Of a stretch of DNA of 64,000 nucleotides, positions 12,456 through 59,396 are shown piece after piece (within the stretch, counting starts at the first letter, position 1; each line of letters starts with the position of its first letter). Source of the stretch: Parcubacteria group bacterium Gr01-1014_31. GTDB taxonomy: Bacteria > Patescibacteriota > Patescibacteriia > Buchananbacterales > GWA2-38-13. Both the position numbers and the translations under genes were made by a program. The stretch spans positions 206,554 to 270,553 of the forward strand of contig VMFR01000001.1 of the NCBI GenBank assembly GCA_007376135.1. The letters run 5' to 3'. The notes under the pieces are model-generated. The model had not been told where the DNA came from. It ran no database searches and saw nothing but the letters and a program-made list of their open reading frames with translations.

Positions 12456-12562
12456 AAATATAATTCAAAAGGCAAAAATCAAAGGGTAAAATTATGGAGT
12501 CCCGCCCTTGGCGGGACGACATAATATCCTAACTTTTGACTTTTGCATTTTGACTTTTGCAT

Positions 12563-13126
12563 TCACTTCACGATCGTCCCCCATTCCCCGGCCCGGATGC
12601 CGGCCGCATTGGCCTCATCCGTGTCCAAGTGGCAGGCGAGCTTGAACTTCGGATGTATCCGCACGACCACGTCATGGAACGTCAGGGGCCGCGTGCCGTG
12701 CGTACGGACCGACACCGTCTGGCGGTTGCGCAGGCCCAGGCGGGCAGCCGCGCGCGGGTCGCAGTGGATATGGCGGTGCGCGATAATGACGGCCTTGCGT
12801 CGCACCCGCCCCTTGGGGCCGATAAGTTCGCACAGCACCCGCGGCGCCGAGCTGTTGCCGAAGTAGGTCACCGGTGGATTAACGCCCAGGTGCACAGCCA
12901 AAGTCTTTGGTATCTCCACCTGGGTATGGGGACGTTCCGGGCCGACGATGCGCGCGGTGATCTCTCCCGTGCCGATGCGGATACGCACGTTCTCGGCCGC
13001 CGCATATTGTCCCGGCTGGGAGATCGACCGCCGAGGCCGCAAACGATAGCCGCGGCCAAAAAGGATGGCAACGTCTTCGCCGGTCACGTGACAATGGTGT
13101 GCCGAGACTTCCAGGCGTACGCGCAT
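12563..13126 (-). CDS. PduL/EutD-type phosphate acyltransferase (phosphotransacylase), immediately upstream of ackA
   Basis: 187 aa. The conserved AHRHIH and HCH-containing halves fit the two PduL repeats. Pairing with ackA gives an acyl-CoA to acyl-phosphate to ATP pathway. Confidence 0.65.
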   Translation of the reverse strand: MRVRLEVSAHHCHVTGEDVAILFGRGYRLRPRRSISQPGQYAAAENVRIRIGTGEITARIVGPERPHTQVEIPKTLAVHLGVNPPVTYFGNSSAPRVLCELIGPKGRVRRKAVIIAHRHIHCDPRAAARLGLRNRQTVSVRTHGTRPLTFHDVVVRIHPKFKLACHLDTDEANAAGIRAGEWGTIVK

Positions 13127-24763: not shown

Positions 24764-24804
24764 GGGGTAAGGTTAGCACGACAAGCGCGGTCTCACAATG
24801 GTCA

Positions 24805-26637
24805 TTACGGCAGGGTCGGCAACGGCATATTCAGGTCAGGGCACTCCAGCAGGTTTATCCAACGCTTGGTGGTCTTGTAGACGTACCCGGTCGGGGTCTG
24901 CGCGTTGGGCAAGCCGTACGGCACCCATGGCAGCAGCACCTGCTCCCAGTACTTTTTCTGGAATTCCATCACCGCGTCGCGGGTCGCCTTATCGTAGACG
25001 CCCGTCACGGCGAGGCTCAGCCCGAGGTTCTTGTTCAGGAACTCCTGCAGTTTCTTCACTTCCTCCGGGTCGTTCTTGGCCCCGTACTTGATGAATTTTT
25101 TCAGGTACTCGGTGCTGCATACGAACGGGGTTTCCTCAGTGCTGACACCCAAGACCCGCGGCTGCGGGACGCTGCCCGCCGGAACGCCAGTGGGCACTCC
25201 TGGACCGCGACCCGGCGGGCCGTTGGCGCCGCCCCTTGGCGTCGGAGTCGGCGTGGGTGAGCTGCCACCACCGCCGGGGGTTGGCGTTGGGGTGGGCGTG
25301 GGTTCAGGTGTTGGCGTGGGTGTCGGGGTCGGGCCAGGACCGTCGCCGTTGTCTTCATTATCGTCGTCCGTGCCTGTGCAACCCGGGTCATCCATATCCA
25401 CGAGTTCGTCGTCGTCATTGTCAACGCCGTCGGAACATTCCGTGGTCGGAGTCGGCGTGGGGGTTGGCGTTGGGGTGGGCGTCGGGTCAACCGGGTCGGT
25501 TTCGTCATCGTCCTCGTCGCTGTCGCAGCCCAGGTCGTCCAAATCCACCTCGCCGTCGTCGTCATTGTCCTCCCCATCCGAACACTGCGGTGTCGGCGTC
25601 GGACTGGGCGTCGGGGTCGGCGTGGGCGTCGGGTCAACGGGGTCGGTTTCGTCATCATCGTCCGGAGCACTGCAACCCGGGTCGTCCGAATCTATCAGCT
25701 CGTCGGCGTCGTTATCCTCTCCGTCCGAACACTGCGGTGTCGGCGTAGGCGTCGGGTCAACGAGGTCGGTTTCGTCATCATCGTCCGGGTTGGAACAACC
25801 CGGGTCCTCGGAATCTACCAACTGGTCCCCATCATTATCGGTAGTATCCGAACACTGCGGTGTCGGCGTCGGACTGGGTGTCGGGGTGGGTGTTGGGGTC
25901 GGGTCAACGGGGTCGGTTTCGTCATCATCGTCCGGAGCACTGCATCCCGGGTCCTGCTCATCCACGAGTTGGTCGCCGTCATTGTCCGTAGTGTCCGAGC
26001 ACTGCGGAGTTGGCGTTGGAGTCGGAGTTGGCGTCGGCGTGGGTGTCGGGGTGACCGGGTCCGTTTCGTCGTTGTCCTCGGCGTTGGCGCATCCCGGGTC
26101 CGCCAAATCTACTAACTGGTCGCCGTCGTTATCGGTGGTGTCGGAACACTGCGGAGACGACTCGCTGACCGTCACCTGCACGGATGCCGTTGCCTCGCCG
26201 GAGCTTTCTGCGCCCGGAGGAGTCGCGTGATACAGCTTGGCGATAATGGTATAGGTACCGCCAGCCTCGTAGTCGTGGGTATTGTGCCACGGCCCGGAAA
26301 AATTCTTCACGTTACCGTGAGACAGGTCCACGAATTCCAGCACGGACGTATCGTCCACGTTGCCGTCGCCCCAGTTCACCTGCACGTCGTGCTGCGAGAA
26401 CTGGCCGACGAACGGGACGCCGAACCCGGTGCCGTCCACCTGGACCGACAGACCGTTCACGGTCGTGCCGGTAATAGTTAGGTCATACTCTCCCCCGCCC
26501 GTGGCGGCCATGATGGCCGCGGGCGAAAATGCGGACACCACCATGGAAAAGATGGTCGCGGCGGCCACGGTCCGCAGCCCGTCCAGACGGGAGTGCACAG
26601 AGGCAAACAGCCGTTTCGCGCGGATGTTTTTCTTCAT
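24805..26637 (-). CDS. Secreted protein with six Cys-bracketed Ca-binding-like repeats (QCSDTTDNDGDQLVDxxDPGC) joined by PT linkers, a Gly/Pro-rich spacer and a C-terminal peptidoglycan-binding (PGBD1-like) domain
   Basis: ORF track. The repeats are DxDxDG-type. The C-terminus ...LQEFLNKNLGLSLAVTGVYDKATRDAVMEFQKKY... matches the PG_binding_1 pattern. Confidence 0.7.
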   Translation of the reverse strand: MKKNIRAKRLFASVHSRLDGLRTVAAATIFSMVVSAFSPAAIMAATGGGEYDLTITGTTVNGLSVQVDGTGFGVPFVGQFSQHDVQVNWGDGNVDDTSVLEFVDLSHGNVKNFSGPWHNTHDYEAGGTYTIIAKLYHATPPGAESSGEATASVQVTVSESSPQCSDTTDNDGDQLVDLADPGCANAEDNDETDPVTPTPTPTPTPTPTPTPQCSDTTDNDGDQLVDEQDPGCSAPDDDDETDPVDPTPTPTPTPSPTPTPQCSDTTDNDGDQLVDSEDPGCSNPDDDDETDLVDPTPTPTPQCSDGEDNDADELIDSDDPGCSAPDDDDETDPVDPTPTPTPTPSPTPTPQCSDGEDNDDDGEVDLDDLGCDSDEDDDETDPVDPTPTPTPTPTPTPTTECSDGVDNDDDELVDMDDPGCTGTDDDNEDNGDGPGPTPTPTPTPEPTPTPTPTPGGGGSSPTPTPTPRGGANGPPGRGPGVPTGVPAGSVPQPRVLGVSTEETPFVCSTEYLKKFIKYGAKNDPEEVKKLQEFLNKNLGLSLAVTGVYDKATRDAVMEFQKKYWEQVLLPWVPYGLPNAQTPTGYVYKTTKRWINLLECPDLNMPLPTLP

Positions 26638-26763
26638 AGATAAACGGTTATAACGGGTTTGAAATTAGTCGACCACTTTACCCTGACCAAAGCATTGTGT
26701 CAACCCGCGCACAAAGGGCGCCATACCGGCGCCCTGGCATGCCTAACTCTTCGTGGCGCGCGG

Positions 26764-27996
26764 CTACTCGCAAAGCTGCCCGGCAATGGTGTTGTAGATG
26801 GCGGCAAGGTCCCCGCTGGACGGGCTGAAGTAGTACTGCCCGCCGGTCATCGTTGCGATCTGCTGCAACATCGTGCTGTTGACGTTGGAGCCAAGGCCGA
26901 TAGTGAAAATGGTGGTGCTGGCGTTGGCCGCGTCCTGCGCGCGGTTGATGGCGTAGGTAACATCTGCGGCGTACTCACCGTACCCGGGGCCGAACGGCTT
27001 GTTGGCCTTGCCGTCGGTCAAAAGGATTTCCACGTGAGCTGCTGCTGGGCGCATCCGCACGGATGTAAGCTCGGTGTTCGCGGTCTTAATGGCGTCGCCA
27101 ATGTTTGTTGCGCCAACCGCCACCAGCGCGTCGATCTTGGTCTTTACCAATGGGTAGTTGTTGGTCAACGTTTGGTCCAGGGTCACGCTGGTTGCGAACG
27201 ATACCAAGGACGCCTGGTCGTTCGGAGTGAGTAGGTCCACAAAGCCCTTGGCTGCCGCCTTGGCGTCAACGAACCGCTGGCCGCTGTCAAACAGCATGGA
27301 GCCGGAGCGGTCAATGATGAGGACGACGTCCACCGGCCCGGTGCACTGCTGGGTTGTGCAGCTCGCGCTGCAGGAAGCTCCCGGCTGGCCGTTCTGCGGC
27401 CCCAGGTCGCACTCCTCGCCCGGTTCCATAATGCCGTTGCCGCAGGAGGGGTCGATGTTGACCGACAGGTCACAGCCGAATTCGCCGTTGGTGGTAACGA
27501 TGCCGCCTTTGTGGTCCTGGGCGACGCCGCCGCTGGTCGGGTCGGCGATGGCCGGCGCGTCCAAAAGCACGGTCCAGACGTCGGTCTCGTCCGTGCTTTC
27601 CGTTAAGGTCGCGTTGGCCGGCACGTCGCCTTCGCCCGTTTCGCCCGTCAGCGAGATGTACGGACACAGGTCGCGGTAGTAGCCGGGCAGCTCAGGGTCG
27701 CCGCCGTCCGGGTACTCCGGGTGCTCCGGCGGCAAGGGCTTGCGCTTCTCCTCTATCCAGTAATCCTGCGACTGGCCCAGGAATTCCGGCGCCAGGGTAA
27801 TAGTGAAGGTTTCGTCCAGCTGCTCGCCCGGGAAGACCATGCCGAAGTCCAAATGGTTGATGGATTCCAAGATGGGCAGCAAGGTGGCCGACACGCCGAT
27901 GAGCGCAGACTGGAATATCGCGAACACCAGCCCGCTCACCACGAGTGTGGCGGTTCCCTTGGCCCAGCGGCGGATGGTCATTTTGGAGGTGAACAT
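26764..27996 (-). CDS. Secreted vWA-domain protein with a Myxococcus-type Cys-rich repeat; member of the SipW-cognate-like N-terminal family
   Basis: VWA MIDAS region (VVLIIDRSGSM, ... LTDG). CGNGIMEPGEECDLGPQNGQPGASCSASC repeat. N-terminal AIFQSALIGVSATL...FGMVFPGEQLDETF parallels the paralogs at 33291 and 35135. Confidence 0.8.
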   Translation of the reverse strand: MFTSKMTIRRWAKGTATLVVSGLVFAIFQSALIGVSATLLPILESINHLDFGMVFPGEQLDETFTITLAPEFLGQSQDYWIEEKRKPLPPEHPEYPDGGDPELPGYYRDLCPYISLTGETGEGDVPANATLTESTDETDVWTVLLDAPAIADPTSGGVAQDHKGGIVTTNGEFGCDLSVNIDPSCGNGIMEPGEECDLGPQNGQPGASCSASCTTQQCTGPVDVVLIIDRSGSMLFDSGQRFVDAKAAAKGFVDLLTPNDQASLVSFATSVTLDQTLTNNYPLVKTKIDALVAVGATNIGDAIKTANTELTSVRMRPAAAHVEILLTDGKANKPFGPGYGEYAADVTYAINRAQDAANASTTIFTIGLGSNVNSTMLQQIATMTGGQYYFSPSSGDLAAIYNTIAGQLCE

Positions 27997-28005
27997 GGCG
28001 ATAGT

Positions 28006-31000
28006 CTAGCTGCCATCAACAGGCGTCGGGGTCGGCGTTGGCGACACGGTCGGCGATTCCTCGGTCACGACCGGTTCATCGGACGGCTCCGGCGGCAAAA
28101 CAGCATCGGTTTCCGGTGAAGTTGTGGCAGTATCGTCCGTCGGCGTAGGCGTCGGGGTCGGACTGGGCTCGGGCGTTGGCGATGGGGTGGGTTCCGGCGT
28201 TGGTTCCGGGGTCGGTGACGGCGATGGCGTGGGGGTCGGTTCCACGACCGGCTCCTCTACTTTGCTGACGGGAGCGACCAATTCCTCGGGGCTGGGTTCC
28301 GGCGTCGGGGTCGGCGACGGAGACGCCAGAAGCTCTTCATTCACGGGCTCGAACGCGATCGGGCTGGAGTAGTCATCCGACGGGAAGAGCGCGTCCCACT
28401 CCGCATCGGTCAGCAATGCCGCGTCCTCCACTTCCGGTTCATCCGGCAGCTCGCTGACCACGCCGACCTCCTCGGCCGGTTCGCCGTCGCAGGTTTCGCC
28501 GGTGTTGTCGTCGCCGGGCGTCGGGCACGGGTCCACCCAGTCGCCCGTGCCGTCCGGCACGCGAGCGTAGGAATTGCCCTCGCCTTTCTCACTGGTCCAA
28601 ATGAATTCGTCCAGCAGCGCGCCGTTGCCGCCGATCTCGCGGTTGTACAGCCGCACGCGGTCCCCGCTGTTGTTCAGATTGAAGTCCGAATCGCCGTTAC
28701 GGTAGACCACCATCTGCCCGCCCGCCGCAATGGTCGTGGTGCCGGTGTCCGTGTTGAAGGCGCCAATATCCAGCTCATTGCCGTTGCTGCTGTCGTACAG
28801 CATCCACCCGGCCAGGGAAATAGGCTTGCCGGAACGGTTATAGAGCTCCACCCATTCGCCATTGGGTTTGCCGGCGTCATCGGCGCCAGCGGGGTTGGGC
28901 AGCACTTCGTTCAGCACTACCTCCTGCTGCCCGGTCGGCGAGCAGCCGTCCCATGGGATGAGGTTGCCGTCGTCGCACTGTTCATCCTGTTCCAGCACGC
29001 CGTTGCCGTAGCCCGGCAGGATGCACTGGCCGGCGTTCGGATTCTCGTCCTCGTAGAAATTGTAGATACGGGCGGCGACGTACGCGGCGCGCGCCAGGTC
29101 ATCGCGGGTGGCGCTGCCGTTGGCGATGTACTGCTCCACAGCGGCGATCGCCTGCTGCACCGTCGACGTCGGGCTTAAGCCAAGAACGTCGAAGGCGGCA
29201 TTCCCGTCGTCGGAACCGCCCAAGAGCGCGTCCAGACGCAGACGGCCGGCCGAGACGTTGGCCTCATCGGCCAGGACGTGCGCCTTGGCGCGGCAGCGCT
29301 GGCCGGAAACCGTGCCGCCGCTCGGGCAGTTGCTGGTGTTCACATTGGCGCAGACTTGCGGCCCGGTGATGCCGACAAAGACATCCGAGAAACCGTCCGA
29401 CAACACGCTGACCTCGTCGGCCCAGATGCTGGACGTCGGGCAGCCGTCGTTGTTGCGGTAGTAGCCGATGGACAGGGCCGAGCACTCATTGGTCAGCGGC
29501 TCACAGGTCGTCGAGCAGTTGCTGCCCGGCTGGCCGTTCTGGGTCCCTTCGTCGCACTGTTCGGTCTGACCGAAGGAATTGGGCGTCTGTACCGTGCCGT
29601 CGCCGCACCAGTTGGTCGGCGTACAGGTGTTGTCACAGTCGTCGAAATTATTGGTGTTGCCGTCGTCGCACTGCTCCGGGGCTTCCACGGTGCCATTGCC
29701 GCACTCCGGCGCGACCGTGCAGTCGTTCCGGCAGGCGTCCTCGTCATTCGTATTGCCATCGTCGCACTGCTCCGTTTCCTGGTTGACGATGCCGTCGCCG
29801 CAGCGGACCGGGATGGGGCACAGCACCACTTCATCAACGGCGTAGCTGTCGCCGCCGCGCAACTTGAGCTGGCGGATGCCCGTCGTCTGATCGCCGGTTA
29901 TCTTTTGCACCGAGTTACCGCCCTTGGTCGGCACGGGGATGGAGAACACCTGCGCGGTGCCACTCGCGTCTGCGTACCCGACCACCTCGCCGGTGCTGTT
30001 GTCCAGGTCAATATACTTGACCGAGGAGAACGCCATCGGTTGAGCAAAGGTGAAACGGAGGGAACCGCCGGCCGGTTCGTCGTTCGGGTCATCCACGTCG
30101 CCGTCGGCGGGGGCCGTGTCCACCACGTTGTCGGGGATGATGAGGAGGTTGTGCAGCGCCGTCGCGTTGGACGGTTCCTTGCCGTCGCCGCTCTCGCTGT
30201 TGCCCGGGCCGCCGAACTGGAGGTTGGGGGTGCCCAGGTCCACGTCCACGATGCCGTCGCCGTTGACGCCGCCCGTCGGGGTGTCGGAATCAAAGGTGAT
30301 CCCCACCTGCGGATGCCCGGCGTTGTAGTTGTGCGCGGTGACGGCGATACCCCACGGCAGGTATTCGCCGTCAATGAATTGGCCGCGGCGTATCACGCCG
30401 CCGTTCGCGTCGGTGTCAAAATCCAAAGTGATGGCGTTTTCGCACACGCCGTCCTGGTAGTTGCCGAAGTCCAAGTTGGAGGCAAACTCGCCCTGCGCCA
30501 GGGTCACGTTGATGTTTACTGGCGTGCTGTGGGTCCAGCCGTCGCGGTCCTCTTCCATCACCGTGTAGCTGCCCGCGTTCAAACCGGAGAATTCATAGTA
30601 CCCGGCCGTGTCCGTCACGGCCCCGCCCACGGCATCGCCCGAAAGCGTTATCTGCCAGCCGGGAATCGCGGGTTCGCCCGCGTCCCAAACACCGTCCTTG
30701 TCCAAGTCGTTGAACTTGTGGCCGGACAGGCCGCCGCGGCGCTCTTCCTGCTTGTTGCCGAAGTCCACGACCGTTTCGCATCTGCCGAGGTACACGGCCA
30801 CGCTGTCGTCTGTGGTGGATATCCAGCCGTTCTGCGGCGCCTCGGTCACGATGTAGTCGCCGAAGTCCAGGTTCCCGAACTGGTAGTTGCCGTTCGAGTC
30901 CGTCACCTGGTTGCCGAGGTCGCGCGCCGCCAGCCAGTTCTGGAAATCGCCCAGGTCGCCGGACGGAAGCGCGAGGGAGGAGTCATTGTTGAAATCACAC

Positions 31001-31380
31001 TGCGTGCCGGCGGGACACGTTGCCCCGTCCACGATAACGTCTTCCAGCACGCCGTAGTCGTTGGAATCGTTAAATCCGTTGCCGTTGTAATCAAATTCAG
31101 CGGCATAGGGCCCGCGCTTCAGCTCAATGACCCAGTTCTCCAGGCCCGGCTCGCCCGCGTCGCGGATACCGTCGCCGTCCAGGTCGTTGAACTTGGTCCC
31201 GTGGAGCACGACCTCCTCGCACCGCGGCGTGATGCGGGCCGTGACGTTCACGACCGAAGCCTCAAAGGCCGCAATGACCGGCAGCTGGGTGAGCACCACC
31301 GCAAACGCGACCAGCGAAGCACCCACACGCTTGGTAGCGGTGAGCACGCGCTTCGTCAGTTTTTTAGTTCGTGACCTCAT
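28006..31380 (-). CDS. Giant secreted adhesin-like protein (1124 aa): SipW-cognate-like N-terminus, Cna-B/SdrD-B-like domains, four Myxococcus Cys-rich repeats, a lamin-tail domain (LTD) and a PT-rich C-terminal tail
   Basis: N-terminus ...[14 protein letters not shown]. Cna-B-like segments ([29 protein letters not shown]). [23 protein letters not shown] repeats x4. LTD segment [28 protein letters not shown]. Confidence 0.8.
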
Positions 31381-31387
31381 GGTGAGA

Positions 31388-31830
31388 ACGTATCTAGTAT
31401 CTGGTATCTCGTATTTAGGTAAAGGATTTGCACTTTTTGATCAGACCATTCAGTAACTTATGAACTTCAACGGTCAGTTTTGCGATGGTCTGGAATTTAT
31501 CGTTCGTAATATATTTAACGTCGCGCGCAACGAGTAATTGGTTCTGTAATTCCGTTACTGATCCCTCCGCGAATGAATAAAAGTGTAATTTCTCTTTCCA
31601 GGATTGGCGGCTAAAGCCTTCGGCGATATTGGAAGTGATGGATACTGCGCTCCGGCGCATCTGACTGACCAGCCCGAATGTTTCGTCTTTTGGAAACCCT
31701 TTTGTCGTCTGATAGATCTGGAGGACCAACTGATGCCCCTGCTGCCACGTTGTTAAATTCGTGAAGTTTTTAATTTTTTCCATTTTTATATTCGCTAGAT
31801 ACTAGATACTACATACTAGATACTCCGCCT
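31388..31830. mobile_element. Low-GC cassette carrying a four-helix-bundle gene, flanked by inverted arrays of heptamer repeats (GTATCTN x3.5 on the left, TAGATAC x4 on the right)
   Basis: Left gtatctagtatctggtatctcgtat (~31390..31416) and right tagatactagatactacatactagatact (~31795..31826) are reverse complements. Interior GC is about 43% against ~65% in the flanks. Confidence 0.55.
31415..31783 (-). CDS. Four-helix-bundle protein (TIGR02436 family, the type found in 23S rRNA intervening sequences and mobile DNA)
   Basis: 122 aa, [59 protein letters not shown]-rich codon usage. Confidence 0.75.
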
Positions 31831-31831
31831 T

Positions 31832-32395
31832 TCACTTCTGCACCTTCTTACTCACCATTATGGAAATGAACCCCAGCTTCGGTATCCGCACCGGTTTGCC
31901 CGACGACCAGTTCAGCGTGCGGCCGATGACGGTAGTGACGGCGACTGGCTTATCATCCACGTTGTTGGCGTCGCCGCGGGTGGTGATCTCACCTTTGGCG
32001 GTGTCAATTTCCTTGATGCGGTGGATGGTGAACCCGCGCTCGTTGGTGTAGACCACGATGTCCCCGACCTTCAGCTCTTCGGCGGAGACGGCCTGCACCA
32101 GGATGAGGTCCCCGACCTTCAGTTCGGGCCACATGGACCCGGACGTGATTGCCGCCATCGGGTACTCGGTCTTCAGCCACCTGGACAGCCCAATGGGCAG
32201 CCCCCACACCAGCAGGGCGACGAACCCGACGTAGACGACCACGTTCAGGACCAGTTTCAGGATGCGCCGCGACATCGGCTTTTTCTTTTTCTCCGACATC
32301 CTGGGCGTCACCGTGGAACGCTCGATACCGGCCGCTGCCGCATCGGTGCCCTCCATCTGCGGCGTCGCGGATTCGTTGTTTTGTTCTTCTGACAT
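31832..32395 (-). CDS. Signal peptidase I, SipW/archaeal type (SPase I, S26B-like)
   Basis: 187 aa. Its N-terminal acidic/basic segment is followed by one TM helix. Catalytic SGSMWP motif, a GDANNV-type motif (TRGDANNVDD), and a C-terminal second hydrophobic region. Confidence 0.8.
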   Translation of the reverse strand: MSEEQNNESATPQMEGTDAAAAGIERSTVTPRMSEKKKKPMSRRILKLVLNVVVYVGFVALLVWGLPIGLSRWLKTEYPMAAITSGSMWPELKVGDLILVQAVSAEELKVGDIVVYTNERGFTIHRIKEIDTAKGEITTRGDANNVDDKPVAVTTVIGRTLNWSSGKPVRIPKLGFISIMVSKKVQK

Positions 32396-32515
32396 TGTAA
32401 GGTGCAGTCCGGTGAATTAGGAATCAGGAATAAGGAATTATGCGCCGCAGCATCCCTTATTACTAACTCCTAATTCATGCCGTTCCCTAATTCCTAATTC
32501 TTAATTCCCTATTCG

Positions 32516-33028
32516 CTAAAACAACTTGGGCCACTTGAATATCATCACCCGTCCGCTGTACTTGCGGTATTGCGCCGACGACGGGATGCGGACATTGAAC
32601 TCCAGCTTCACCTCTTCGCCCGGCTGCAGCGTGAATTTCGCCGGCCGGTCCACTTTCATCAGCTCGGCCAGCTCGCCGGATTTCACCACCCAGATGGTCT
32701 TTGCCATTTTGCCGGGGTTTTTCAGGTTGATGAAGCGGGAAGCTCCGGTGTCGCGCGACAGGTCGCCAAAGTCCAGGCGCTCGGCCGTCGGGTTGACGCC
32801 GACTCGGTCGGTGCCCTCCACCACCTGCACGATGGCCTGGTAGCGTTCGGCTGCCATCACCTGCACGCCGATAAACCACACGACCGCAATGGCGCCGATC
32901 AACAGGAACGCCTGCTTCTTGGTCCACTGCTTGCGCGGCTTTTTCGGCGCAGCAACCGGAGCCGGCGCCGGAGCAGCCTGCGTCGTATTCGGTACTTGAG
33001 GTTCTGCGCTTGGCATCTGGGGTTCCAT
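32516..33028 (-). CDS. Membrane-anchored hypothetical protein (170 aa) between the signal peptidase and its putative substrates; possible accessory (TapA-like role) protein
   Basis: A Pro/Ala-rich N-terminus and TM helix (FLLIGAIAVVWFIGV) precede a ~110-aa beta-rich ectodomain. Confidence 0.45.
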   Translation of the reverse strand: MEPQMPSAEPQVPNTTQAAPAPAPVAAPKKPRKQWTKKQAFLLIGAIAVVWFIGVQVMAAERYQAIVQVVEGTDRVGVNPTAERLDFGDLSRDTGASRFINLKNPGKMAKTIWVVKSGELAELMKVDRPAKFTLQPGEEVKLEFNVRIPSSAQYRKYSGRVMIFKWPKLF

Positions 33029-33290
33029 AGATCGGTGAATTAGGAATTTCGAATTATGAATTGGGGGTGCGGTTTTTGGAATTTTTGTCTCAGGCGCCTA
33101 ATTCCTGATTCATAATTCCTTATTCCCCGTATTAACTCCCCATCCCCCTCCGCCCCTTTGGTTGGTGAAGTATGAAGTTCGAATTATGAATAAGGGTATC
33201 GGTTGCCCAATTCCTGATTCATAATTCCTTATTCTTCACGAAACCGCAGGGACGAAGGGCGGATTGGCAGTCAATCGAAGCAGAAATGCC

Positions 33291-34628
33291 TTACGGAACG
33301 GGCTCTGGGGTCGGCTCCGGCGTCGGCGACGGCAGCGGGTCAACCCCATTTTGGGTGAGGTTGTCGATGGCCGTCACTTCAAACCACAGGTCGCAGCCAA
33401 ACACCTCGTGCTCCAGCTCCGGAGGGAGCATGTAGTCATTCGGGTCGGCCGCTGGATTGTGGCTACGGACGAAGTCCGCCCAGTCCTGGGCGCAGGCGCC
33501 CTTGAAACAGGGCACCGGCAGGTCGATGATCCACGTGTCGCCCACGTCCGTACCCGTCTTTTTGATCTTGCCGCGGGCAACGGATGTTGCCAGCTCAGGG
33601 TCATGGAAGGCGGGCACCCCGTAGTCATTGGCCACCGGATGGTTGTCCGGCGTCTTTGACAGGTAGGGGCAGAGGGATGGATAGCACTTTTCCAAGTACG
33701 TTGTCCACACCGTATCGGACGAGTCGTACGGGGTCGTCGGAAGGTTGAGGTGGCAGTAATCGCGTGCGACCGTCACCCCAACCTCCTGCAAGAATCCGTC
33801 CCGCGGCTTGGGTTTCTGCTTGATCACGTAGTGCACCGTGGAAACGCGGGTCTGGTCGGTTTCCGAAAAGGATTCGCTGAAGGTGACAAAGGTGCCACGC
33901 TCCAGATACTCCTGCGGGAACACGGTGCCATGGTTATCCGGGTCCTGGACGTAGTCTGCCGGATCCGCGGTCGGGTTGATTCCGTGGACGTAGTCCTCCC
34001 AGTCCTGGGCGCAGAAACCGTCAAAGCACGGAACCTTCAGGTCGATCTTCCACTGGTCGCGAACGTCATCGTTTGACTTGGCCAGATAACCAATGGCCTC
34101 GAGCCAAGAAATGGACGACGTCGAAACCGTGAACGGCTGGTGGAATGCGGCGACCTCAACCTCGTTAATTTCGACACCATCTGCACCCTTGTGCTTGGAC
34201 AGGTAGGGGCAGAGTGACGGTAGTACGCCCCAGTCCGCGCCCTCGGGCATGTTTTCCGGCCGAGGACCACAATCAATACGGTAACCGCCCTGACCATCTA
34301 AAACGACATGGCCAGTGGCCGTCGGGAAGTCCAACATCACGGTTCCGCCGTCGGTGGTAACTGCGCACTTGGGCTTCTGGCGAATCATGTACTGGACATC
34401 ATCCGCGTCCTTTTCGTCCAAGAACGAGCCAGAAAGCTGAACATCAAAAACCTTGTCCAGCTGCTCCTGCGGGAATACGGTGCCGTAGCGGATTTCCTTG
34501 ATCGGTACTTCCAAGGCGTTCTCGATGCGCGCCGTCACGTTGATGACGTGTGCCTCAAAGGCGGCGAACATTGGGACCGATGCGACGGCCAATGCCAGCG
34601 CCGAGAAGCCGAACAAAACTTTCTTCAT
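33291..34628 (-). CDS. Secreted protein, SipW-cognate-like N-terminus, internally duplicated Cys-motif domain (LCPYLSK ... VPCFxGxCAQDW)
   Basis: MKKVLFGFSALALAVASVPMFAAFEAHVINVTARIENALEV... has two repeats of the LCPYLSK/VPCF(D/K)G(F/A)CAQDW(E/A)D(Y/F)V module, then a Pro-Thr tail. Confidence 0.75.
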   Translation of the reverse strand: MKKVLFGFSALALAVASVPMFAAFEAHVINVTARIENALEVPIKEIRYGTVFPQEQLDKVFDVQLSGSFLDEKDADDVQYMIRQKPKCAVTTDGGTVMLDFPTATGHVVLDGQGGYRIDCGPRPENMPEGADWGVLPSLCPYLSKHKGADGVEINEVEVAAFHQPFTVSTSSISWLEAIGYLAKSNDDVRDQWKIDLKVPCFDGFCAQDWEDYVHGINPTADPADYVQDPDNHGTVFPQEYLERGTFVTFSESFSETDQTRVSTVHYVIKQKPKPRDGFLQEVGVTVARDYCHLNLPTTPYDSSDTVWTTYLEKCYPSLCPYLSKTPDNHPVANDYGVPAFHDPELATSVARGKIKKTGTDVGDTWIIDLPVPCFKGACAQDWADFVRSHNPAADPNDYMLPPELEHEVFGCDLWFEVTAIDNLTQNGVDPLPSPTPEPTPEPVP

Positions 34629-35134
34629 AATGGTTTGCTCCTTTTTAGGGTATTAGGTGCGTACTTGTTACTTTTTAAGTAACTCACCCCATACAGGAAT
34701 CACTCCTGTCCTCCGGGGGAATTGCGCCCGCAATCCCACGTTCCGGGATCGGGCAAGGTACTTAATGAGCTTGAGGCCACCCACGCCTGTTCCGTGGAGG
34801 AACGGAAGAGGTGTGGGTTCGACTTTTGGCCGCAAGTGATTGTCAACCCTTCGATAGGATCTGCTCAGGGTTGCCCTGAGCGCCGCCGAACGGGCAATTG
34901 GGCGGAACGTCCCGCCAACGGCGGGAATGTTGTCCTCCCATCCCCCAGCCTCTTCCCGATAAGGGGCTGGGTCAATGGACGGACAACCGACTCCTCGTCA
35001 TCCCGGCACCCTCACCCTATCCCTCTCCCCGAGGGAGAGGGTGGCCGGAGGCCGGGTGAGGGCCGGAATGACGGTTTAGTTACGGTTGGTCAATGGTACA
35101 GACTACCCGCCTACATCACTACCTAACTTCACGT

Positions 35135-36451
35135 CTACTCCGGGCAGGACGCCAGCTTCTCCAATTCGGCCTGCAGCGTCGCAAAGTCGGCGGCCGAGAA
35201 GTAGTGCGCGTCGTTGGTGGCAATGGTCTTCAGGTAGGTGGCGTCCACGTCGCCGCCGATGCCGACCACGTAGATTTCCACACCTGCCGCCTTGGCCGCG
35301 TCAGCGGCGGTCTTGGCAGCGGCCTTGTCAAGCGTCACGTCGCCGTTCGGGCGGTTCGGGTTGCCATCGGTCATGATGACCATGACGTCCGGCACTGCTG
35401 GACGCTCGTGCGGGTCGGCGCTGTCCAATTCACCGGTCGCAAGTTCAATACCTTCCTTGAGGTTGGTGAACCCGCCGTTGACCAGGGCGTCAATGGCAGC
35501 GTTGATGGTCGAGGTCGCATCGCTCAAGTGCAGGTCCAGTGTGCCCGTGTCCGAGAAACTGCTTTGCCCGACGTGGGTTCCTGCCGTGGACGGGTTGACC
35601 GCGGTTACGAAGGCCTTGGCAGCTGTCTTCAGGTCGCCTAACTCCGTGGAATCAATGCTGCCGGAGCGGTCAATGACCAGCATCATATCCAGGGTCTTGC
35701 AGCCCAAGCCTGGCAGCGAAATCCCGAACACTTCTATCCATAGGTCGCACCCAAAGATCTGGTGCTCGTTGGAACTCGGCTGGATGTATTCGGTCGGGGT
35801 CGCCGAGGGATTTGCGTCATGGACGAAATCGGCCCAATCCTGCGCGCACTGGCCCTCAAAACACGGGGTCTTGAGGTCAATGAGCCAGCGGTCGCCCGTG
35901 TCCTCCTGGGACTTGGCCAGGTGACCGGTTACCTGCGTGTCCAGCGTGGTCTGCAGCGTCCAGCCGTCAATAACGCCATGGAACGCCGGGATTCCCTGCG
36001 AGTCGTTCTCCGTCACGAGGCCATCTGGGGAAACCTCATGCTTGGACAGGTAGGGGCAAAGCAACGGCAGCGGTACATAGCCATCCGGGCAGATGAACAC
36101 GCCCGTATCCTTGTTGTGGCCGATGACCGCAGCGTAACCCTCATATTGAACCGGGTCCGTATTCGCGATCGGCAAACCACACTTGGGCTTCTGCCGGATC
36201 ATGTAGTCAATGTCATCCACGCGCCCCTCGTCGACGAACGACTGGGACAGCGCGATGCTGATGAACTTGTCCAGCTTTTCCTGCGGGAAGACCGTGCCGA
36301 ACTGGATGGGCTCGGTGTTCACCGCCAACGCGTTCTCAATTCTCGCCGTAACGTTAATGACGTGCGCTTCGAATGCCGCGAACATCGGCACCGACGCGAC
36401 CGCCAACGCCAGGGCGGAAAGAGAAAGCAACGCTTTCTTCATAGTTTGCAA
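35135..36451 (-). CDS. Secreted protein, paralog of 33291..34628 (the first 39 residues are nearly identical), carrying a C-terminal vWA domain
   Basis: MQTMKKALLSLSALALAVASVPMFAAFEAHVINVTARIENALAV... One LCPYLSK/TPCFEGQCAQDWADFV module. VWA (LDMMLVIDRSGSIDS ... MVIMTDGNPN). Confidence 0.75.
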   Translation of the reverse strand: MQTMKKALLSLSALALAVASVPMFAAFEAHVINVTARIENALAVNTEPIQFGTVFPQEKLDKFISIALSQSFVDEGRVDDIDYMIRQKPKCGLPIANTDPVQYEGYAAVIGHNKDTGVFICPDGYVPLPLLCPYLSKHEVSPDGLVTENDSQGIPAFHGVIDGWTLQTTLDTQVTGHLAKSQEDTGDRWLIDLKTPCFEGQCAQDWADFVHDANPSATPTEYIQPSSNEHQIFGCDLWIEVFGISLPGLGCKTLDMMLVIDRSGSIDSTELGDLKTAAKAFVTAVNPSTAGTHVGQSSFSDTGTLDLHLSDATSTINAAIDALVNGGFTNLKEGIELATGELDSADPHERPAVPDVMVIMTDGNPNRPNGDVTLDKAAAKTAADAAKAAGVEIYVVGIGGDVDATYLKTIATNDAHYFSAADFATLQAELEKLASCPE

Positions 36452-36967
36452 TTTTCTGGCTAAGTACCTAGCACTTCGTACTTAGCACTGAGAACTTATT
36501 ACTTAGAACTTCGTTCAGTGACTCGCCCCGCACTTGAAAGCGTGCCCTCCGGGAGCCTGCGCCCGCACCTTCCAGTATGGAGCTAGCCACTGCATTGGAC
36601 TTCCACTACACCCCGCCTTTGGCGGGTTCGACCTTTTGCAGCGGAATAAAATGTAAGGTTCCTCGGGAGTATATTGTCCTCCCATTTCCGGTCCCCTCAC
36701 TCGGCCAGGTGAGGGCACGGGTCAATGGACGGATAACCGACTCCTAGTCGTCCCCGCCCCCATTTTCATGGGGGTAAACTCCAGCGGGGATGATGCATGG
36801 CTCGGGAATGACGGTTTGGTTACGGTTGGTCAATGCTGCGGTTCTACCCGCCTACCCAACTACTTTACCTACCCAACTCTTCCTGCGCCCGTGACGGTCG
36901 CTCCCGGGTGTACGTCAGCCGTAAGCCAACGTACACCCGGCGGCAACCGTCGCCGCCGTTTTCGGAA

Positions 36968-38959: not shown

Positions 38960-39706
38960 AGATCGCTGAGGCAGCAAAAAACCTGCGCCGTTACCTGGCA
39001 CAGGTTTTCATGTTTACAAATGAAGACTGCGGAAACAGCCGCCACACGGCAGCGTGCCCGCAAGCCTTGACCCCCTCCGCGCGGTTCACTTTTTTGTTCG
39101 AACCCGTACCGTGCTTCATGGTGTCGCGTTACGCGGCAAACGCCGCACGCTCTCCGCCGGAAGCAGTAAACAAAACAAAAAACCAAAAATCTTTCCCCCT
39201 CCGACTCCTGACTTTCCAGAGCTGCCACACGGCAGCGGGTACAAAGATTTTGGCCTTTTTGGATCTTTTGTCCTTGATTTTTCTTTTTGATTTCGCGTTC
39301 CTGCTCTACTCTAGCAGCGCCTCACATATACTGCAATAGATTTTATCCACAAAAATGCGGGGACTTACGCACAGGATGAAAACAAGTTGAGCGCAGGGGG
39401 AAAATCAGGTTACGACACACCACGAATGAATTGGCAAGGAGCGTCCGGCGCACTGTATATAGAGACGCTCGTATATACGTTTTTCGCTCGGCCGCAACCC
39501 GCCCCAAAACCGAACTTCGACCCTGGTTAAACGAGCTCAAAAAATCGGTTATTCTGAATTCCGGCTTCCCGCCAACAGCGGGACAGGCTGGGCCCGGAAT
39601 GACGCTGTAAACTCGTCACTGAGCACGGAGCACTGAGCACCGGGCACTAAAACCTCCTACTCCACCTTTAGCGCTTCTACCGTATACCTGTTCGATGCAT
39701 TCCACA

Positions 39707-40639: not shown

Positions 40640-41215
40640 AACGTGCTTGATTTTAGCAATTTAATGCCTTTCTTGACATGAATTTTTATGGAAAATGAGG
40701 GTGAAATATTCACACTGTGTAGTTAATTCCAAATTTCAAAATATTCAATTATATTTATTTCACAATGAAAATTTTCGTCTAATCTTAGTTCCACGTGCAA
40801 CATTACATATGAGTCGCAAAAATATCATTGACTAATTTTTTCAGTATCAGCGAACAGATCTTTCTATCTTTAATGCCTGTGGATAATTTCTCCGACTGAT
40901 ACCGTCATCCCCGCCCCCATTTTCATGAGGGTAAACTCCAGCGGGAGAATCCAGAAATCGGGTTATGTTTTTTCTGGATTCCGGCTCCGGGGCCGGAATG
41001 ACGGTTGGGCGCGAGGATGACGTGTGTTGAGATTGCCGTGCAGGACGTCATCCCGGGCCCGGCCTGTCCCGCCGTTGGCGGGAACCCGGGATCCAGAAGC
41101 AAAAAACATCGTTTCTTGGTCCCCTCTTTTGCAATGATGGCGAACGAAAATCTGAGTTGTACTTTCCCCGCTTTTATGGTAAGACAAGCAACTGTTTAAA
41201 TATCTTCTAACGCCT

Positions 41216-44200
41216 ATGGCAAATTCCGCCTGCGGTCCGGTCAAACACCAAAAACCCATCGGCTATCAGGCCGCGGCGTTGCTTGCCCATATCAAGTCAT
41301 CAACCGCCCGAAAAGTCGCGGTTTTTTTATTGCCGCTCCTGGCTGCCAACCTGGTGTTGAGCGTGGTGCCCGTCGGACGTGTCGCAGGGGTATTAGCGTA
41401 TGAAGACGAACCGGGACCGTCCTGCGCGGCGCGTTCCGTCGGATTTTTCAAAAACAATGAGGGCTGCCCGGCCGAAAGCATTTGGGCCGATGAGGTTAGT
41501 ACGCTATCGGGCGGCTACGCGGGAGAATTTTCGGGTTTGACCGGCGCGCAATTCTGCATTGACTCCAGCATCAGCGAATGCCCTGCCGGCAACACCGTTG
41601 AAGGACAGCGTTGCCGGGCCCGCGCCCACCTGCTGGCCAATGAAGCCAACGTGGTCTCCGCCCGCCTGCAGACCGATGCCCTGCTTGCCGGCGCCGACAA
41701 CGGCGATCCGGCATTCTCCGCGCTCGGCCTTTCGTCTTCGTCCACGGTCGGCCAAGCACTCGCCATTTTGGAGCAAGCACTTGCCGACGTGAACGCCACC
41801 GCCGCCCAGCTGGAAGATATCGCCACGGTGGCGGCGCGCATCTACACGTTCTACGAAAGCGAAAATACCAGCGCCCCGGCCTGCGTCATGCCCACCCCCA
41901 CGCCGACGCCGACCCCGACGCCCACGCCAACACCGGCCTGCGTGATGGAGCTAGTGAAGACCGACTCCCCGGACCCGGTTGAGCCAGGCCAAAACATTTC
42001 CTACCACCTGCGCCTGGAAAGCACCGGCACGGGGATGTGCACCGGCGGCGGCGTGGAGCTGAAGGAGTTCTACGACAGCGCAACGACGTTCGTGTCCGCC
42101 AACCCCGCTCCGACGTCCGGCAACAACCGCTGGAACTTCGGCGAGGTGCCGCCGGGCGAGGTCAACGAGGTGGACGTTATTGTCCACGTGCCCGCGACCG
42201 CCCAGGATGGCGATATCATCACCAACCAAGCGTGCTTCTGGACGCGCGAGTATAACACCTGGACCTGCGTGACGGAACAAACGACCGTCCGCGTCCCTCC
42301 GCCGCCCACCCCAACGCCTACGCCGACACCGGAACCGACCCCGACGCCGACCCCATCGCGAGCCTACTGTGGCGACGAGGTTGTCCAAACCCCCAACAGC
42401 GACGGCCAGGCCGAGCAGTGCGACGACGGCAACCTCATCAATTTCGACGGCTGCAACGTGCACTGCCAGCTGGAGCAGTTCTCCTGTCCCGCGCCGGTCA
42501 TCATTGATTTTGACCGGGACGGCAGCGGCAGCCCGATAGCGGCCGGCCAACTCCTGGATACTGAGTACGCGACCGTTGGCGTGACCATCACGGCCGCCAA
42601 CGACAACGCCTCCCGCCCGCAGATGGCGATCACTTTTGACGGCCAGAACCCAACCGGCGGCGCCGACAGCCTGGACCACGGCACGCCAAACGTTTTCTAC
42701 GGCGGCACCGGCGTCGGTGCCGGCGGCGTACCATCCAATAATGTGCCACTTTACCTGCACCTCATTATTCCAAAGAACGTGACCGACGCGAACCACGATG
42801 GCTTGGTGGACGACCCGGACGAGGACAGCGCCGGCACTGTGACGTTCACGTTCGCCGACCCGGTGAGGCCGGAGCTCATCACCCTCATCGACATAGACCA
42901 CAACGCCGGAACCCATTCCGTCAAAGGGTACCTCGGCTCCACGCTGGTCAGCACCGTGGCTATCCCCACCTACGGCGACAACAACGTCCAATACCTCGAG
43001 TTGGACAATACCCAGGAAGTCGACCAGCTGCGAGTCCGGCTCAACGACTCCTTCGGCATTGACCACCTGGTGTTCTGCCCGCAGACGCCGCCACCCCCGA
43101 CGCCAACGCCTACTCCCACACCCACCCCGATACCCACGCCTACTCCGACGCCAACGCCCACACCGACACCAACGCCGGAGCCAACTCCCACGCCAACACC
43201 TGAACCTACCCCAACGCCGACACCGACTCCTACTCCCACACCGACCCCGACGCCAGAACCCACACCGACGCCGACCCCGGAACCCACGCCAAGCCCGACA
43301 CCTGCGCCCACGCCGACACCTACCCCGCCCCCTGGTGGCGGTGGAGGCGGGGGCGGCGGAGGGGGTGGCGGTGGCCCCATTCCCAACCCCCGGTTGAGCG
43401 TTACGAAAACCTCTCCGGTCATCACCGCCTGCGCGGGCAGCACGGTTCCCTACACCATCACGGTGCAAAACATCGGTTCCTACAGCGGATTCAACCTTGT
43501 ACTCACCGACACGCTGCCCTCCGGCTTCACGTTCGGCACCTCTACCGCCGGGTCGTTCCAGCGCAGTTTCGGCAACGTCGCGCCGCACGAAGTGAAGAGC
43601 TACTCCTACACCGCGACGGTTCCGCCGGGGACTCCGAATGGCAGCTACACGAATACCGTTGTCGCGAAGATCGACAACGGCGGCCCGGCCAACAACACGG
43701 CCAGCGCCAGTTTTATCGTGAAGGTCGCCAACGCATGCGCCGCCCCCGCCCTGGCCCTGGAAAAAACCGTCGCGCAGGACTTCGTGAACGCCGGCGGTTT
43801 GGCTGACTTCACCCTCATAGTTTCCAACGTCGGTCCCGTAACGCTGACCAACGTGACGCTCGCCGATGTTCTGCCCGACGGCTTCACCGCGTCTGACGGC
43901 ACCACTTCATGGTCGCTGAACGATCTTGCGCCCGGCGCCACGAAAACGGTTCAACTGAAAGTCAGCGTCGGCGCAAATGTTGCTCCCGGCACCTATCCCA
44001 ACGTCGCGAAAGCCAAGGCCGACAACCACGCCGAAGTCGTGGACTCGGTCAGTGTGGAGGTCCGCGCGGGCCAGGTCCTGGGCACGGCTTTTGAAGAGCT
44101 GCCCGACACCGGCTCCGGGTTCACGATGCTGGCGTACTTCATCGTCAACCTCATGGCATTAGCCGCCGGTGTCGCGCTCTACCGCTGGACCAACCGCTAC

Positions 44201-44227
44201 GCCCGCCAGTACCAGCTGTGGGCATAA
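41216..44227 (+). CDS. LPxTG-anchored cell-surface protein (1003 aa): Myxococcus Cys-rich repeat, three PT linkers, a 14-Gly run, DUF11 repeats, and a C-terminal LPDTG + TM + basic-tail sorting signal
   Basis: ...[44 protein letters not shown] at the C-terminus. [37 protein letters not shown]11-like [13 protein letters not shown] and [13 protein letters not shown]. Confidence 0.8.
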
Positions 44228-44237
44228 CAATGCAGCG

Positions 44238-44918
44238 ATGAACTTCCTGCCGTCCTACCGCGCTACCCGATTCTTGCGCCGCGCCGCGGTTGCGCTCATT
44301 GTCGCCAGCTTGGCACTGCTCGCCTATCCATTCGCCGGCCGGGTGAATTTCGCGGTGGCGCAGTTGCCGATTTTGGCGCCGACGATTACCCCGCCTGCCG
44401 TTACCCCTTCCCCCGTTCCGTCCACGGAAGGGACGGTAACGCTGGCCGCATGGCTTGCTGCCCAGCAGAAACCGCAGCCCACACAACCGACCCCAACTCC
44501 GGCGACAACTCCGATTCCTGCCGGCAACCTGCTGGAGATCCCCTCCATCGGCGTGAGGATGGCGATCACCCAAGGTTTAGACAGTAAAGCCGCGCTGCGC
44601 CAAGGCGCATGGCTCATCCCGGGGACTCCGACGCCAGACCGCGGCGGCAACACCGTCCTGGGCGGTCACCGCTACCTCTACCGGCCCCCAAGCGCCAAAA
44701 CCTTCTACAACCTGGACAAGGTCAAGGCGGGCGACGCCATCACGGTCACCTGGCAGGGAAAGATCTACAACTACAAAGTCCGCGAAGTAAAAATCGTTGA
44801 ACCCTACCAGGTGGAAATTCTCGAGAACTCCAACGAGAATATTCTCACCCTCTTCACCTGCACGCCGCTGTTCACATCCAAGCAACGATTGGTGGTCATC
44901 GCCGAGTTACAGCAGTAA
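44238..44918 (+). CDS. Sortase (transpeptidase) directly downstream of its LPxTG substrate
   Basis: Internal Met of ORF 44169..44918. N-terminal TM, catalytic His in LGGHRYL, TLxTC motif ILTLFTCTP, and a downstream Arg. Confidence 0.8.
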   Translation: MNFLPSYRATRFLRRAAVALIVASLALLAYPFAGRVNFAVAQLPILAPTITPPAVTPSPVPSTEGTVTLAAWLAAQQKPQPTQPTPTPATTPIPAGNLLEIPSIGVRMAITQGLDSKAALRQGAWLIPGTPTPDRGGNTVLGGHRYLYRPPSAKTFYNLDKVKAGDAITVTWQGKIYNYKVREVKIVEPYQVEILENSNENILTLFTCTPLFTSKQRLVVIAELQQ

Positions 44919-46260: not shown

Positions 46261-46372
46261 AGAGTCAGTACTCCGTACCCAGTGCTCAGTGCTCCGTACG
46301 AACATAAAAAAAGAAGGCGTCTGCTGGAGTGGCAGACGCCTTTTCGGACCCACGGGTTCACGCCTCGGGAAG

Positions 46373-58691: not shown

Positions 58692-59396
58692 CTATTTGCA
58701 AGTTAGCTGTTTTTGTCTATTCGCGACAAGTGGCAGAACAAGATCATCAATTGCTTGCTGGTCTTTGGTGGTTAAACTCGACAATTTTTCGTCACCGGCG
58801 ATATAACTATAATAAATCTCATCGCCATAATAACGTCCCGTAGCCAGGTCACAATATCTTAACAGGAAGACGAGAGCCATTTTCACTTTTTCGGTGGGAA
58901 GATCATAGCCAAGCACTTCCCCCGTTATCGGATTCTGCAACGGGGCAGCCCCTAGTTCCAACAATTTCTCATGAGCAGTGGTTGAAAAAAAGGAATACGG
59001 CAGTTCGGTGTCGGGATAGATAGTATTTCTCATCCTTTCGTCAACGAATATTGGGAACACTTTTTTATCAAAAATCTCGACTCCGTATAAATCAAATTCG
59101 ATTTTATTAGCAGCGGTCTGCCCGAAATTCTTCAGGTTAAAATTATATATAAATTTGATTTCGTTGCCCCTCCTTTCAGGTTTAACTCTGGAACCAGTGA
59201 CACCTATAAATGGCCTAAGCCGCGGCAGACTCTCACCATAAACTTTTTCCGACAGTTCGTTGGCTTTCCTTGAAAAAAAATTTGCTGCACCGGAGTTACG
59301 TAGCGAGAAAGAAGACAAAACTAAAGAAACGACTGAGACAGTTATCGCAATCCAATCTCTCGGCTTATTTATTTGTCGTGTTCCGCCGCTCCCCAT
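58692..59396 (-). CDS. Hypothetical N-terminally anchored protein (234 aa) in an AT-rich patch
   Basis: ORF track. Locally low GC (aaattatatataaatttgatttcg), flanked on the 58480..58640 side by MITE-like hairpins. Confidence 0.45.
   Translation of the reverse strand: MGSGGTRQINKPRDWIAITVSVVSLVLSSFSLRNSGAANFFSRKANELSEKVYGESLPRLRPFIGVTGSRVKPERRGNEIKFIYNFNLKNFGQTAANKIEFDLYGVEIFDKKVFPIFVDERMRNTIYPDTELPYSFFSTTAHEKLLELGAAPLQNPITGEVLGYDLPTEKVKMALVFLLRYCDLATGRYYGDEIYYSYIAGDEKLSSLTTKDQQAIDDLVLPLVANRQKQLTCK

Follow-up and report, generated by a model that had tools for sequence, protein, structure and literature searches.

The window, the whole 64-kb stretch of DNA that was analysed, contains a surface-protein gene cluster (positions 24800-36500) with genes for two VWA proteins and for SipW; a sortase gene lies further on (44169-44918). 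Within the cluster, three genes follow one another on the minus strand. The first, sipW (31832..32395), encodes a SipW/archaeal-type signal peptidase I (TIGR02228, E 5e-25, above the cut-off), and the third (28006..31380) encodes a secreted, adhesin-like protein of 1124 residues with SdrD_B, LTD, and DUF4215 domains and a SipW-type signal peptide. Signal peptides of the type AAFEA[SH]V[VI]NVTARI are present on this protein and on the product of 33291..34628. The 451-bp gap between sipW and the adhesin gene is occupied by a cassette: a small gene of 369 bp (31415..31783), whose product of 122 residues matches the PF05635 and TIGR02436 profiles, with an array of heptamers on each side. An identical cassette is present at the same locus in two independent assemblies.

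Anatomy of the cassette

The whole unit spans 434 bp (31390-31823) and consists of about 28 nt of degenerate heptamers, the ORF, and about 28 nt of complementary heptamers. Read in the sense of the gene, the upstream arm (31796..31823, minus strand) is GTATCTA GTATGTA GTATCTA GTATCTA, a tandem repeat of period 7 with 4.3 copies, and the downstream arm (31390..31418, minus strand) is its complement, TAAATAC GAGATAC CAGATAC TAGATAC. As an inverted-repeat pair (I5; 31390-31418 and 31795-31823), the arms are 29 nt each and 86% complementary. On the forward strand, the left array (31390-31417) reads GTATCTA GTATCTG GTATCTC GTATTTA and the right array (31796-31823) reads TAGATAC TAGATAC TACATAC TAGATAC. 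A preliminary description of this DNA had placed heptamer arrays on both sides of the gene, which is correct, and four copies of TAGATAC on the right, where there are three exact units and the variant TACATAC.

The first base of the upstream arm lies 8 nt past the sipW stop codon and its last base 12 nt ahead of the cassette ATG, while 9 nt separate the end of the downstream arm from the ATG of the adhesin gene. The TAA stop codon of the cassette (31415-31417) falls within the fourth unit of the left array, which in gene sense is the first unit, TAAATAC. When up to 2 mismatches are allowed, the 13-mer GTATCTAGTATCT has 6 matches in 64 kb, every one of them in the two arrays, versus 0.25 expected; 6 matches were reached in 0 of 100 shuffles. 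A chance origin of the arrays is thereby ruled out.

The preliminary description of a four-helix-bundle gene with about 43% GC between high-GC genes is confirmed by the composition: the cassette gene has a GC content of 0.43 and a GC3 of 0.54, and its flanking genes have values of 0.60-0.65 and 0.83-0.84, respectively. The leader of the cassette is A/U-rich and lacks a Shine-Dalgarno sequence. A consensus scan of the gene strand found neither a σ70-like promoter nor an intrinsic terminator in the spacers, although the promoters of Patescibacteria may differ from the consensus. An Rfam scan of the 64-kb window returned a single tRNA, no rRNA, and no known RNA family in the spacers.

The 122-residue protein and its family

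The protein matches PF05635 over profile positions 2-106 of 106 (E 1.5e-37; 128.5 bits, cut-off 33.8) and TIGR02436 (E 1.9e-36; 124.6 bits, cut-off 24). By sequence homology, the nearest solved structure is 2GSC (XCC0516; E 5e-18), and 2RLD is also related; each of these entries contains five chains as deposited. Residues R44, S48, N52, and E55 are present in the window protein and are invariant across an alignment of 18 sequences. They constitute the core motif, R-x3-S-x3-N-x2-E, quoted for the PF05635 family (PMC3936711); the leading G-x2-R spacing of the published consensus is not matched.

More than 4,000 PF05635/TIGR02436 relatives were returned by the search, and the nearest protein outside the genome itself, in a search of 5.8 billion sequences, is 73% identical. 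The window protein is probably under purifying selection. PF05635/TIGR02436 is a very large orphan family, whose sole characterised member is Avd, a protein of diversity-generating retroelements (DGRs).

Cassettes in other Patescibacteria

Homologues of the protein (58-70% identical) were sampled at 80 loci from other Patescibacteria genomes. The suggestion that other copies of the gene be checked for the same arrays could thus be followed up, and inverted heptamer arms are present in 73-74 of the 84-85 homologues, with a stem in 74 of 85 (median 26 bp). The flavour of the heptamer varies and includes GAATNNN, GTATNNN, GTAGNNN, and CGAATCA, among others. A period-7 signal in the flanks combined with inverted complementarity was found for 71% of 84 homologue genes versus 3% of 569 control ORFs, a crude control that takes in any ORF of at least 90 aa, and 81 of the 84 score higher for an inverted than for a direct arrangement. 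Each side carries about four units (medians 4.3 and 3.9), in which a 4-nt core is kept at 7-nt spacing and three positions vary. At nearly all of the loci, a purine-rich array reaches or enters the start codon, and the complementary array starts at or inside the stop codon; among 64 cassettes, the start codon is built by the array in 34 and the stop codon in 41. The array-ORF-array build is the rule for the relatives of the window protein in Patescibacteria.

Stop codons in all three frames are more frequent in the arrays than in shuffles (0.47 versus 0.26 upstream; 0.36 versus 0.05 downstream). The enrichment does not extend to every array and is probably a side effect of having a 7-nt period in AT-rich DNA. 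The GC content of the cassettes averages 0.34 versus 0.43 in their flanks (r = 0.75); where the host lies at 0.50-0.60, the cassettes lie at about 0.40-0.45. A GC content about 9 points below that of the host, whichever host it is, is a systematic trait of the family. The cassette had been called compositionally foreign; the low GC itself holds, but as a family-wide trait it gives no proof of recent import.

Almost every cassette immediately follows a host gene of the same orientation, and the distance from the stop codon of that gene is about one array length. By a simple gene call, the upstream neighbour is co-directional in 69 of 71 cases versus a background of 0.77 (p = 2.6e-6), and a median of 28 nt, one array length, separates the stop of that gene from the cassette ATG. 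No such bias is seen for the downstream neighbour, which is co-directional in 56 of 71.

Some variants of this build were also seen. Divergent PF05635 genes in the metagenome loci L143, L133, and L186 have far longer arrays, with 10-15 units. The arrays of L143 are direct, not inverted, and those of L133 and L186 have a polarity opposite to that of the window, with TAGATAC-type units upstream. In Falkowbacteria, the cassette of one family member (P0067) also lies directly behind a signal peptidase I gene, possibly by coincidence.

Gain and loss at the sipW-adhesin junction

Orthologous operons were found through SipW homologues, and loci L103-L110 were used for an empty-site comparison. The junction in the window (SipW 100%) holds the cassette with its GTATCTA arrays. 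In L103, whose SipW is 80% identical to that of the window, the two genes are separated by a spacer of 9 nt; in L104 (67%), by an ORF-less, GAAT-type hairpin of 135 nt; in L105 (62%), by a single nucleotide; and in L107 (62%), by a PF05635 cassette with GAATNNN arrays. Thus, the search for cassette-free versions of the site, which the preliminary description had proposed, yielded two empty junctions, L103 and L105, both without arrays. The SipW proteins of L105 and L107 are 74% identical. Given these identities, in each closest pair, window with L103 and L107 with L105, one site is filled and the other is empty.

The window protein is 63% identical to the L107 protein and 72% identical to that of L112, a locus with GTAT-type arrays and unrelated neighbours. 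When the cassette DNA of the window is aligned with that of L112 and L171, the GTAT and ATAC cores stay in register on either side of the ORF. This register, and the flavour shared with L112, indicate that the arrays belong to the unit. It is the whole unit, arrays included, that is gained or lost at the sipW-adhesin junction. Taken together, the states of the junction and the protein identities of 63% and 72% indicate that the junction has been hit or replaced at least twice. The stop codon that closes the sipW reading frame is supplied by the array in both L104 and L107.

The preliminary description had proposed a very small mobile or homing unit. One part of this proposal stands, since array, ORF, and array behave as a single indel unit at the junction (L103, L104, L105, L107). 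The other part is not supported. The PF05635 gene is the only ORF in the unit, so there is no recombinase or transposase; no direct repeat is common to the flanks (...GAGAAC and TCCGCC...), and no target-site duplication is seen; and the 64-kb window has no second copy of the cassette. The marks of a transposable element or MITE, namely a transposase, a target duplication, and near-identical copies, are therefore missing within the window. Active homing is not borne out either: for P0067 and another family member, P0065, the protein is unchanged and lies between the same flanking genes at every one of the 20 places returned, in different samples. With such constant flanks, and with the nearest relative of the window protein at 73% identity, recent mobility is rejected. 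Mobility is historical, not observed. A phage vehicle was also considered and rejected, as the viral contigs scanned with the family alignment contain no relatives.

A difference between strains was noted at another pair of loci. L093 and L096 come from strains with an identical PF05635 protein; behind a PrgI-like gene, one of them carries an extra stretch of about 80 nt (L093 3840-3935 versus L096 3840-3856). With its short units in tandem and its inverted complementarity, this insert resembles an ORF-less hairpin carried by only one of the two strains.

Hairpins and arrays that lack an ORF

Heptamer hairpins without an ORF are found in neighbouring spacers of the same operon. A hairpin of GAATNNN heptamers lies between a gene for a protein of 170 aa and sipW (32410..32514; pairs I3 and I10). 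Its sense strand folds at -39.7 kcal/mol (z -4.9), which is 11 kcal/mol better than the antisense strand, and its spacer is 86% identical to the orthologous spacer of L107, with array blocks of 28-30 nt that are identical. Within this spacer (window 32396-32515; L107 3871-4000), two tandem purine-rich arrays are followed by one pyrimidine-rich array, so that two alternative 5' arms compete for one 3' arm. Two more GAATNNN hairpins share the spacer directly upstream of the 170-aa gene, one at 33036..33129 (fold z -3.5; 80% identical to the L107 spacer) and the other at 33168..33234 (pair I7; -30.7 kcal/mol, z -4.7). Elsewhere, a hairpin of CAAAAGN/ACTTTTG heptamers (12465..12563; fold z -6.2 to -7.9) encloses a small GC-rich hairpin. 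Between the window and L107, the identity of the hairpin spacers is 86% and 80%, compared with 62% for the DNA of the sipW genes and 43% at their third codon positions. The ORF-less hairpins stop 7-26 nt short of start codons. They are either functional cis-elements or the targets of something that keeps them uniform.

Arrays are also frequent at a distance from cassettes: 99 were counted in 436 kb of 80 Patescibacteria loci, about one per 4.4 kb. A metagenome scan for three copies of GTATCTA returned 80 loci, mostly with single arrays, and in 7 of them a PF05635-like ORF lies within 120 nt. Because the other 73 have no such ORF within this distance, the exact heptamer is not specific to cassettes. 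The preliminary description had named ordinary promoter direct repeats upstream of unrelated genes as an outcome that would speak against it. This outcome is seen in part, since arrays of other flavours do occur upstream of unrelated genes in the window; however, these are conserved hairpins of inverted pairs, not direct repeats.

Single arrays of heptamers or 14-mers without an inverted partner are present in the window at 36462-36511, 39617-39648, and 46265-46299. Single arrays of the TAGNACT type lie just upstream of the VWA gene 35135..36451, and those of the related CACTGAG and TCAGTAC types lie downstream of genes.

Relation to 23S rRNA intervening sequences

The preliminary description had linked the TIGR02436 family to intervening sequences (IVSs) of 23S rRNA. 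Both the family and the link are upheld, by the profile matches and by a locus, L145, that came from the metagenome scan for the heptamer of the window. L145 is a bacterial LSU rRNA (Rfam) interrupted by a PF05635 ORF, a bona fide 23S rRNA IVS with the same build as the cassette. The IVS begins with GTCTAGA AACTAGA TACTAGA GACTAGA ahead of the ORF and ends with TCTAGTT TCTAGAC behind it, with 4 units per side. The rRNA operon of L145 contains three hairpins of CTAGANA heptamers (46-399, 1709-2155, and 2631-2731 of L145), all with GTCTAGA at the start and TCTAGAC at the end. These are a hairpin in the 5' leader of the 23S rRNA, the IVS with the PF05635 ORF, and an ORF-less IVS in the same rRNA. 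In a different locus, L121, a divergent family member is located after position 565 of a 23S rRNA.

In the 23S IVS of Coxiella burnetii, GACAGAT heptamers, 3-4 in tandem, directly precede the S23p ORF; this IVS has a 28-bp terminal stem and is excised by RNase III (PMC4990558). The window element thus has much in common with the ORF-bearing rRNA IVSs, which include those of Leptospira, S23p of C. burnetii, and the insertions reported in 16S and 23S rRNA of CPR bacteria: a protein of the PF05635 family, 3-4 tandem heptamers before the ORF, stem-forming terminal inverted repeats of about 28 nt, and the existence of ORF-less alongside ORF-bearing versions. An rRNA IVS is transcribed within a host transcript, as the window cassette probably is. 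The differences concern place and precision. Instead of lying inside a helix of a 23S or 16S rRNA gene, the window element lies in an operon, where it fills the spacer that separates one protein-coding gene from the next, and its arms are less perfectly complementary (86%) than those of rRNA IVSs. In addition, excision by RNase III, which is known for rRNA IVSs, is putative here, and its effect on an mRNA would differ from that on a ribosome. Since the heptamer-ORF-heptamer build is the same and the rRNA location is absent, the window element is of the IVS kind except for its location. We describe it as IVS-like in its working and not as an IVS itself.

In the open-access literature searched, heptamers are mentioned for the Coxiella IVS only, and nothing was found on heptamer-flanked PF05635 genes outside rRNA. 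The IVS class is known from rRNA; that literature has no description of an operon context, a family-wide rule, or a hitch-hiking geometry.

A proposed intervening element in an mRNA operon

The best explanation of the cassette, which we hold with moderate confidence, is that it is an ORF-bearing element of the IVS type located within an mRNA operon instead of 23S rRNA. The cassette would lack a promoter of its own and depend on read-through transcription from sipW. Once transcribed, the two arms would pair to form an imperfect stem of about 28 bp with the ORF looped out, and this stem would bring the end of sipW beside the start of the adhesin gene. By analogy with the 23S rRNA IVSs of Coxiella and Leptospira, such a stem is a plausible substrate for RNase III. 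The protein would be translated from the unstructured, A/U-rich leader, and the ORF-less hairpins in neighbouring spacers may be the same kind of element minus its cargo. Processing by RNase III, coupling of translation, and recognition of heptads by the protein are all putative.

Folding of the RNA from 31375 to 31840 (minus strand) agrees with parts of this scheme: both the MFE and the centroid structures pair the two arrays, and the A/U-rich translation start stays open. The fold of the whole transcript is no stabler than that of shuffles (z -0.4). Mismatches between the arms, read on the sense strand, show no excess of G:U-compatible over A:C-type pairs, either in cassettes (42 versus 36; p = 0.57) or in ORF-less hairpins (13 versus 9), and therefore do not demonstrate selection on RNA rather than on DNA. 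A unit-by-unit palindrome is also rejected, since the order of units is no better mirrored between the arms than chance would have it (1.21 mismatches per unit versus 1.13 when permuted). Each heptamer has about 1.2 mismatches between the arms; most are A:A or T:T and fall at the three variable positions. They look more like two arrays of one degenerate motif than like a maintained helix.

Alternative explanations

This character of the arms bears on another reading, in which the heptamers are putative heptad binding sites for the four-helix-bundle protein. The protein would then be an autoregulated host factor that acts at the ORF-less hairpins, on RNA or on DNA, in the manner of RAYT/REP, TRAP, or omega rather than by way of a passive stem. 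Several features of the arrays fit this idea, namely the 4-nt core conserved at 7-nt spacing beside three variable positions, the lack of both unit-by-unit covariation and G:U bias, and the direct arrays of L143. The 4-5 units per array can be set beside the five chains in each of the solved relatives, 2GSC and 2RLD. The idea would also be consistent with the ORF-less hairpins being far more conserved than neighbouring synonymous sites, and with distant arrays being slightly nearer to the cassette units of their own locus (2.00 versus 2.33; 0 of 300 permutations). However, the cassette of the window has the GTATCTA flavour and all of the nearby ORF-less hairpins have GAATNNN, a PF05635 gene is missing from within 120 nt of the array in 73 of the 80 GTATCTA metagenome loci, and the near-universal inverted arrangement in the subfamily is equally predicted by a simple stem. 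On balance, we consider binding of the protein to the heptads unlikely, if worth bearing in mind.

Known systems illustrate what such binding might look like. The omega repressor of plasmid pSM19035 is a small oligomeric autoregulator for which contiguous 7-bp units, direct or inverted, serve as cooperative sites. Omega has a ribbon-helix-helix fold, whereas the window protein is a four-helix bundle, for which heptad binding is purely hypothetical. The reported REP/RAYT, REPIN, and MITE elements offer a second comparison. REP/RAYT systems consist of a small gene between inverted copies of a short repeat that also occurs as many gene-less hairpins in spacers, and window-type elements do likewise. 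The window protein, in contrast, has no transposase or HUH nuclease fold, and its repeats are degenerate 7-mer arrays rather than one conserved palindrome, with no recent copying found. Heptanucleotide STRRs, which are reportedly abundant direct tandem arrays in cyanobacteria, share with the window the occurrence of tandem degenerate heptamers in non-coding DNA, in many flavours per genome, although in a different taxon, which has many PF05635 genes of its own; we know of no report of STRRs paired around PF05635 genes.

In a broader form of the idea, PF05635 and the heptamer arrays would make up one widespread system, in which a pentamer reads 4-5 tandem heptads of RNA or DNA, the cassette is the autonomous form, and ORF-less hairpins and IVSs are either cargo-free derivatives or targets. 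This is a doubtful proposition at present. If true, the system would be REP/RAYT-like, would shape the processing of transcripts in Patescibacteria, and would explain the origin of rRNA IVSs.

It is rather improbable that the hairpins are host cis-elements of operon spacers, with a role in mRNA processing or stability, for example, and that the ORF simply landed in an existing loop, in which case the arrays would be outside any mobile unit. ORF-less hairpins do occupy three consecutive operon spacers and are conserved between the window and L107, arrays are found about once per 4.4 kb away from cassettes in the 436 kb surveyed, and L104 has an ORF-less hairpin at the sipW-adhesin junction itself. 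On the other hand, the empty junctions of L103 and L105 (9 and 1 nt) have no arrays, and the arrays of the window match those of L112 in flavour and register rather than the other hairpins of their own host. Start and stop codons that are built by the arrays, in 34 and 41 of 64 cassettes, respectively, also argue that the ORF and the arrays form one unit.

Finally, the gene might be an orphaned accessory gene of a DGR, since Avd of Bordetella phage BPP-1 (bAvd) is a small, basic four-helix-bundle pentamer that works with nucleic acid and the window protein matches the bAvd-like profile PF22296 at its cut-off (40.2 versus 40 bits), but this is hardly credible: the match to NF033474 is weak (33.7 versus a cut-off of 80), which together with the absence of a reverse transcriptase domain from the 24 ORFs scanned against Pfam (14.7-59.4 kb) led us to reject identity with the Avd equivalog; template and variable repeats are absent from the locus; heptamer arrays are not known as a feature of DGRs; and the same architecture is found inside rRNA genes. 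Homology between PF05635 proteins and Avd has been noted (PMC10053308).

Significance

For more than 30 years, rRNA IVSs have been without an accepted origin or function. If the cassette is indeed an IVS-type element within an mRNA operon, then heptamer-ORF-heptamer units in ordinary operon spacers would turn an rRNA curiosity of a few pathogens into a general class of element with a testable anatomy. The case for such a class is built on the location in operon spacers, the status of the build as the norm in Patescibacteria, the co-directional upstream gene, and the coexistence of conserved hairpins without an ORF. One consequence concerns annotation by context: where a PF05635 gene is wedged into a cas or secretion operon, it is probably a hitch-hiker and not a working partner of its neighbours.

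Other features of the window

Three further features were noted. An ENA assembly of the same organism carries 240 extra bases at 33930/33931 (L001 4226-4465). In that version, the place of the gene for 445 aa at 33291..34628 is taken by a tandem pair of paralogues (255 and 261 aa), both of which have their own SipW-type signal peptide, whereas the window and a Logan contig have a fused, single gene. The difference reflects either a real deletion between paralogues or a collapse in assembly.

A family of GC-rich dispersed repeats, with ends GTCATYCCGGG ... CCCGGRATGAC, is found at 39560-39605, 40903-41003, 41046-41100, 58545-58634, and about 10 other sites. With at most 1 mismatch, CCSGGRATGACG has 17 occurrences versus 2.7 expected. 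These repeats often form palindromic pairs in low-GC intergenic islands and have a MITE-like look. GC-rich palindromic repeats also adjoin an ORF for 234 aa (58692..59396, minus strand), which has a GC content of 0.42 and a GC3 of 0.42 in a genome of 0.62 GC and no match in Pfam.
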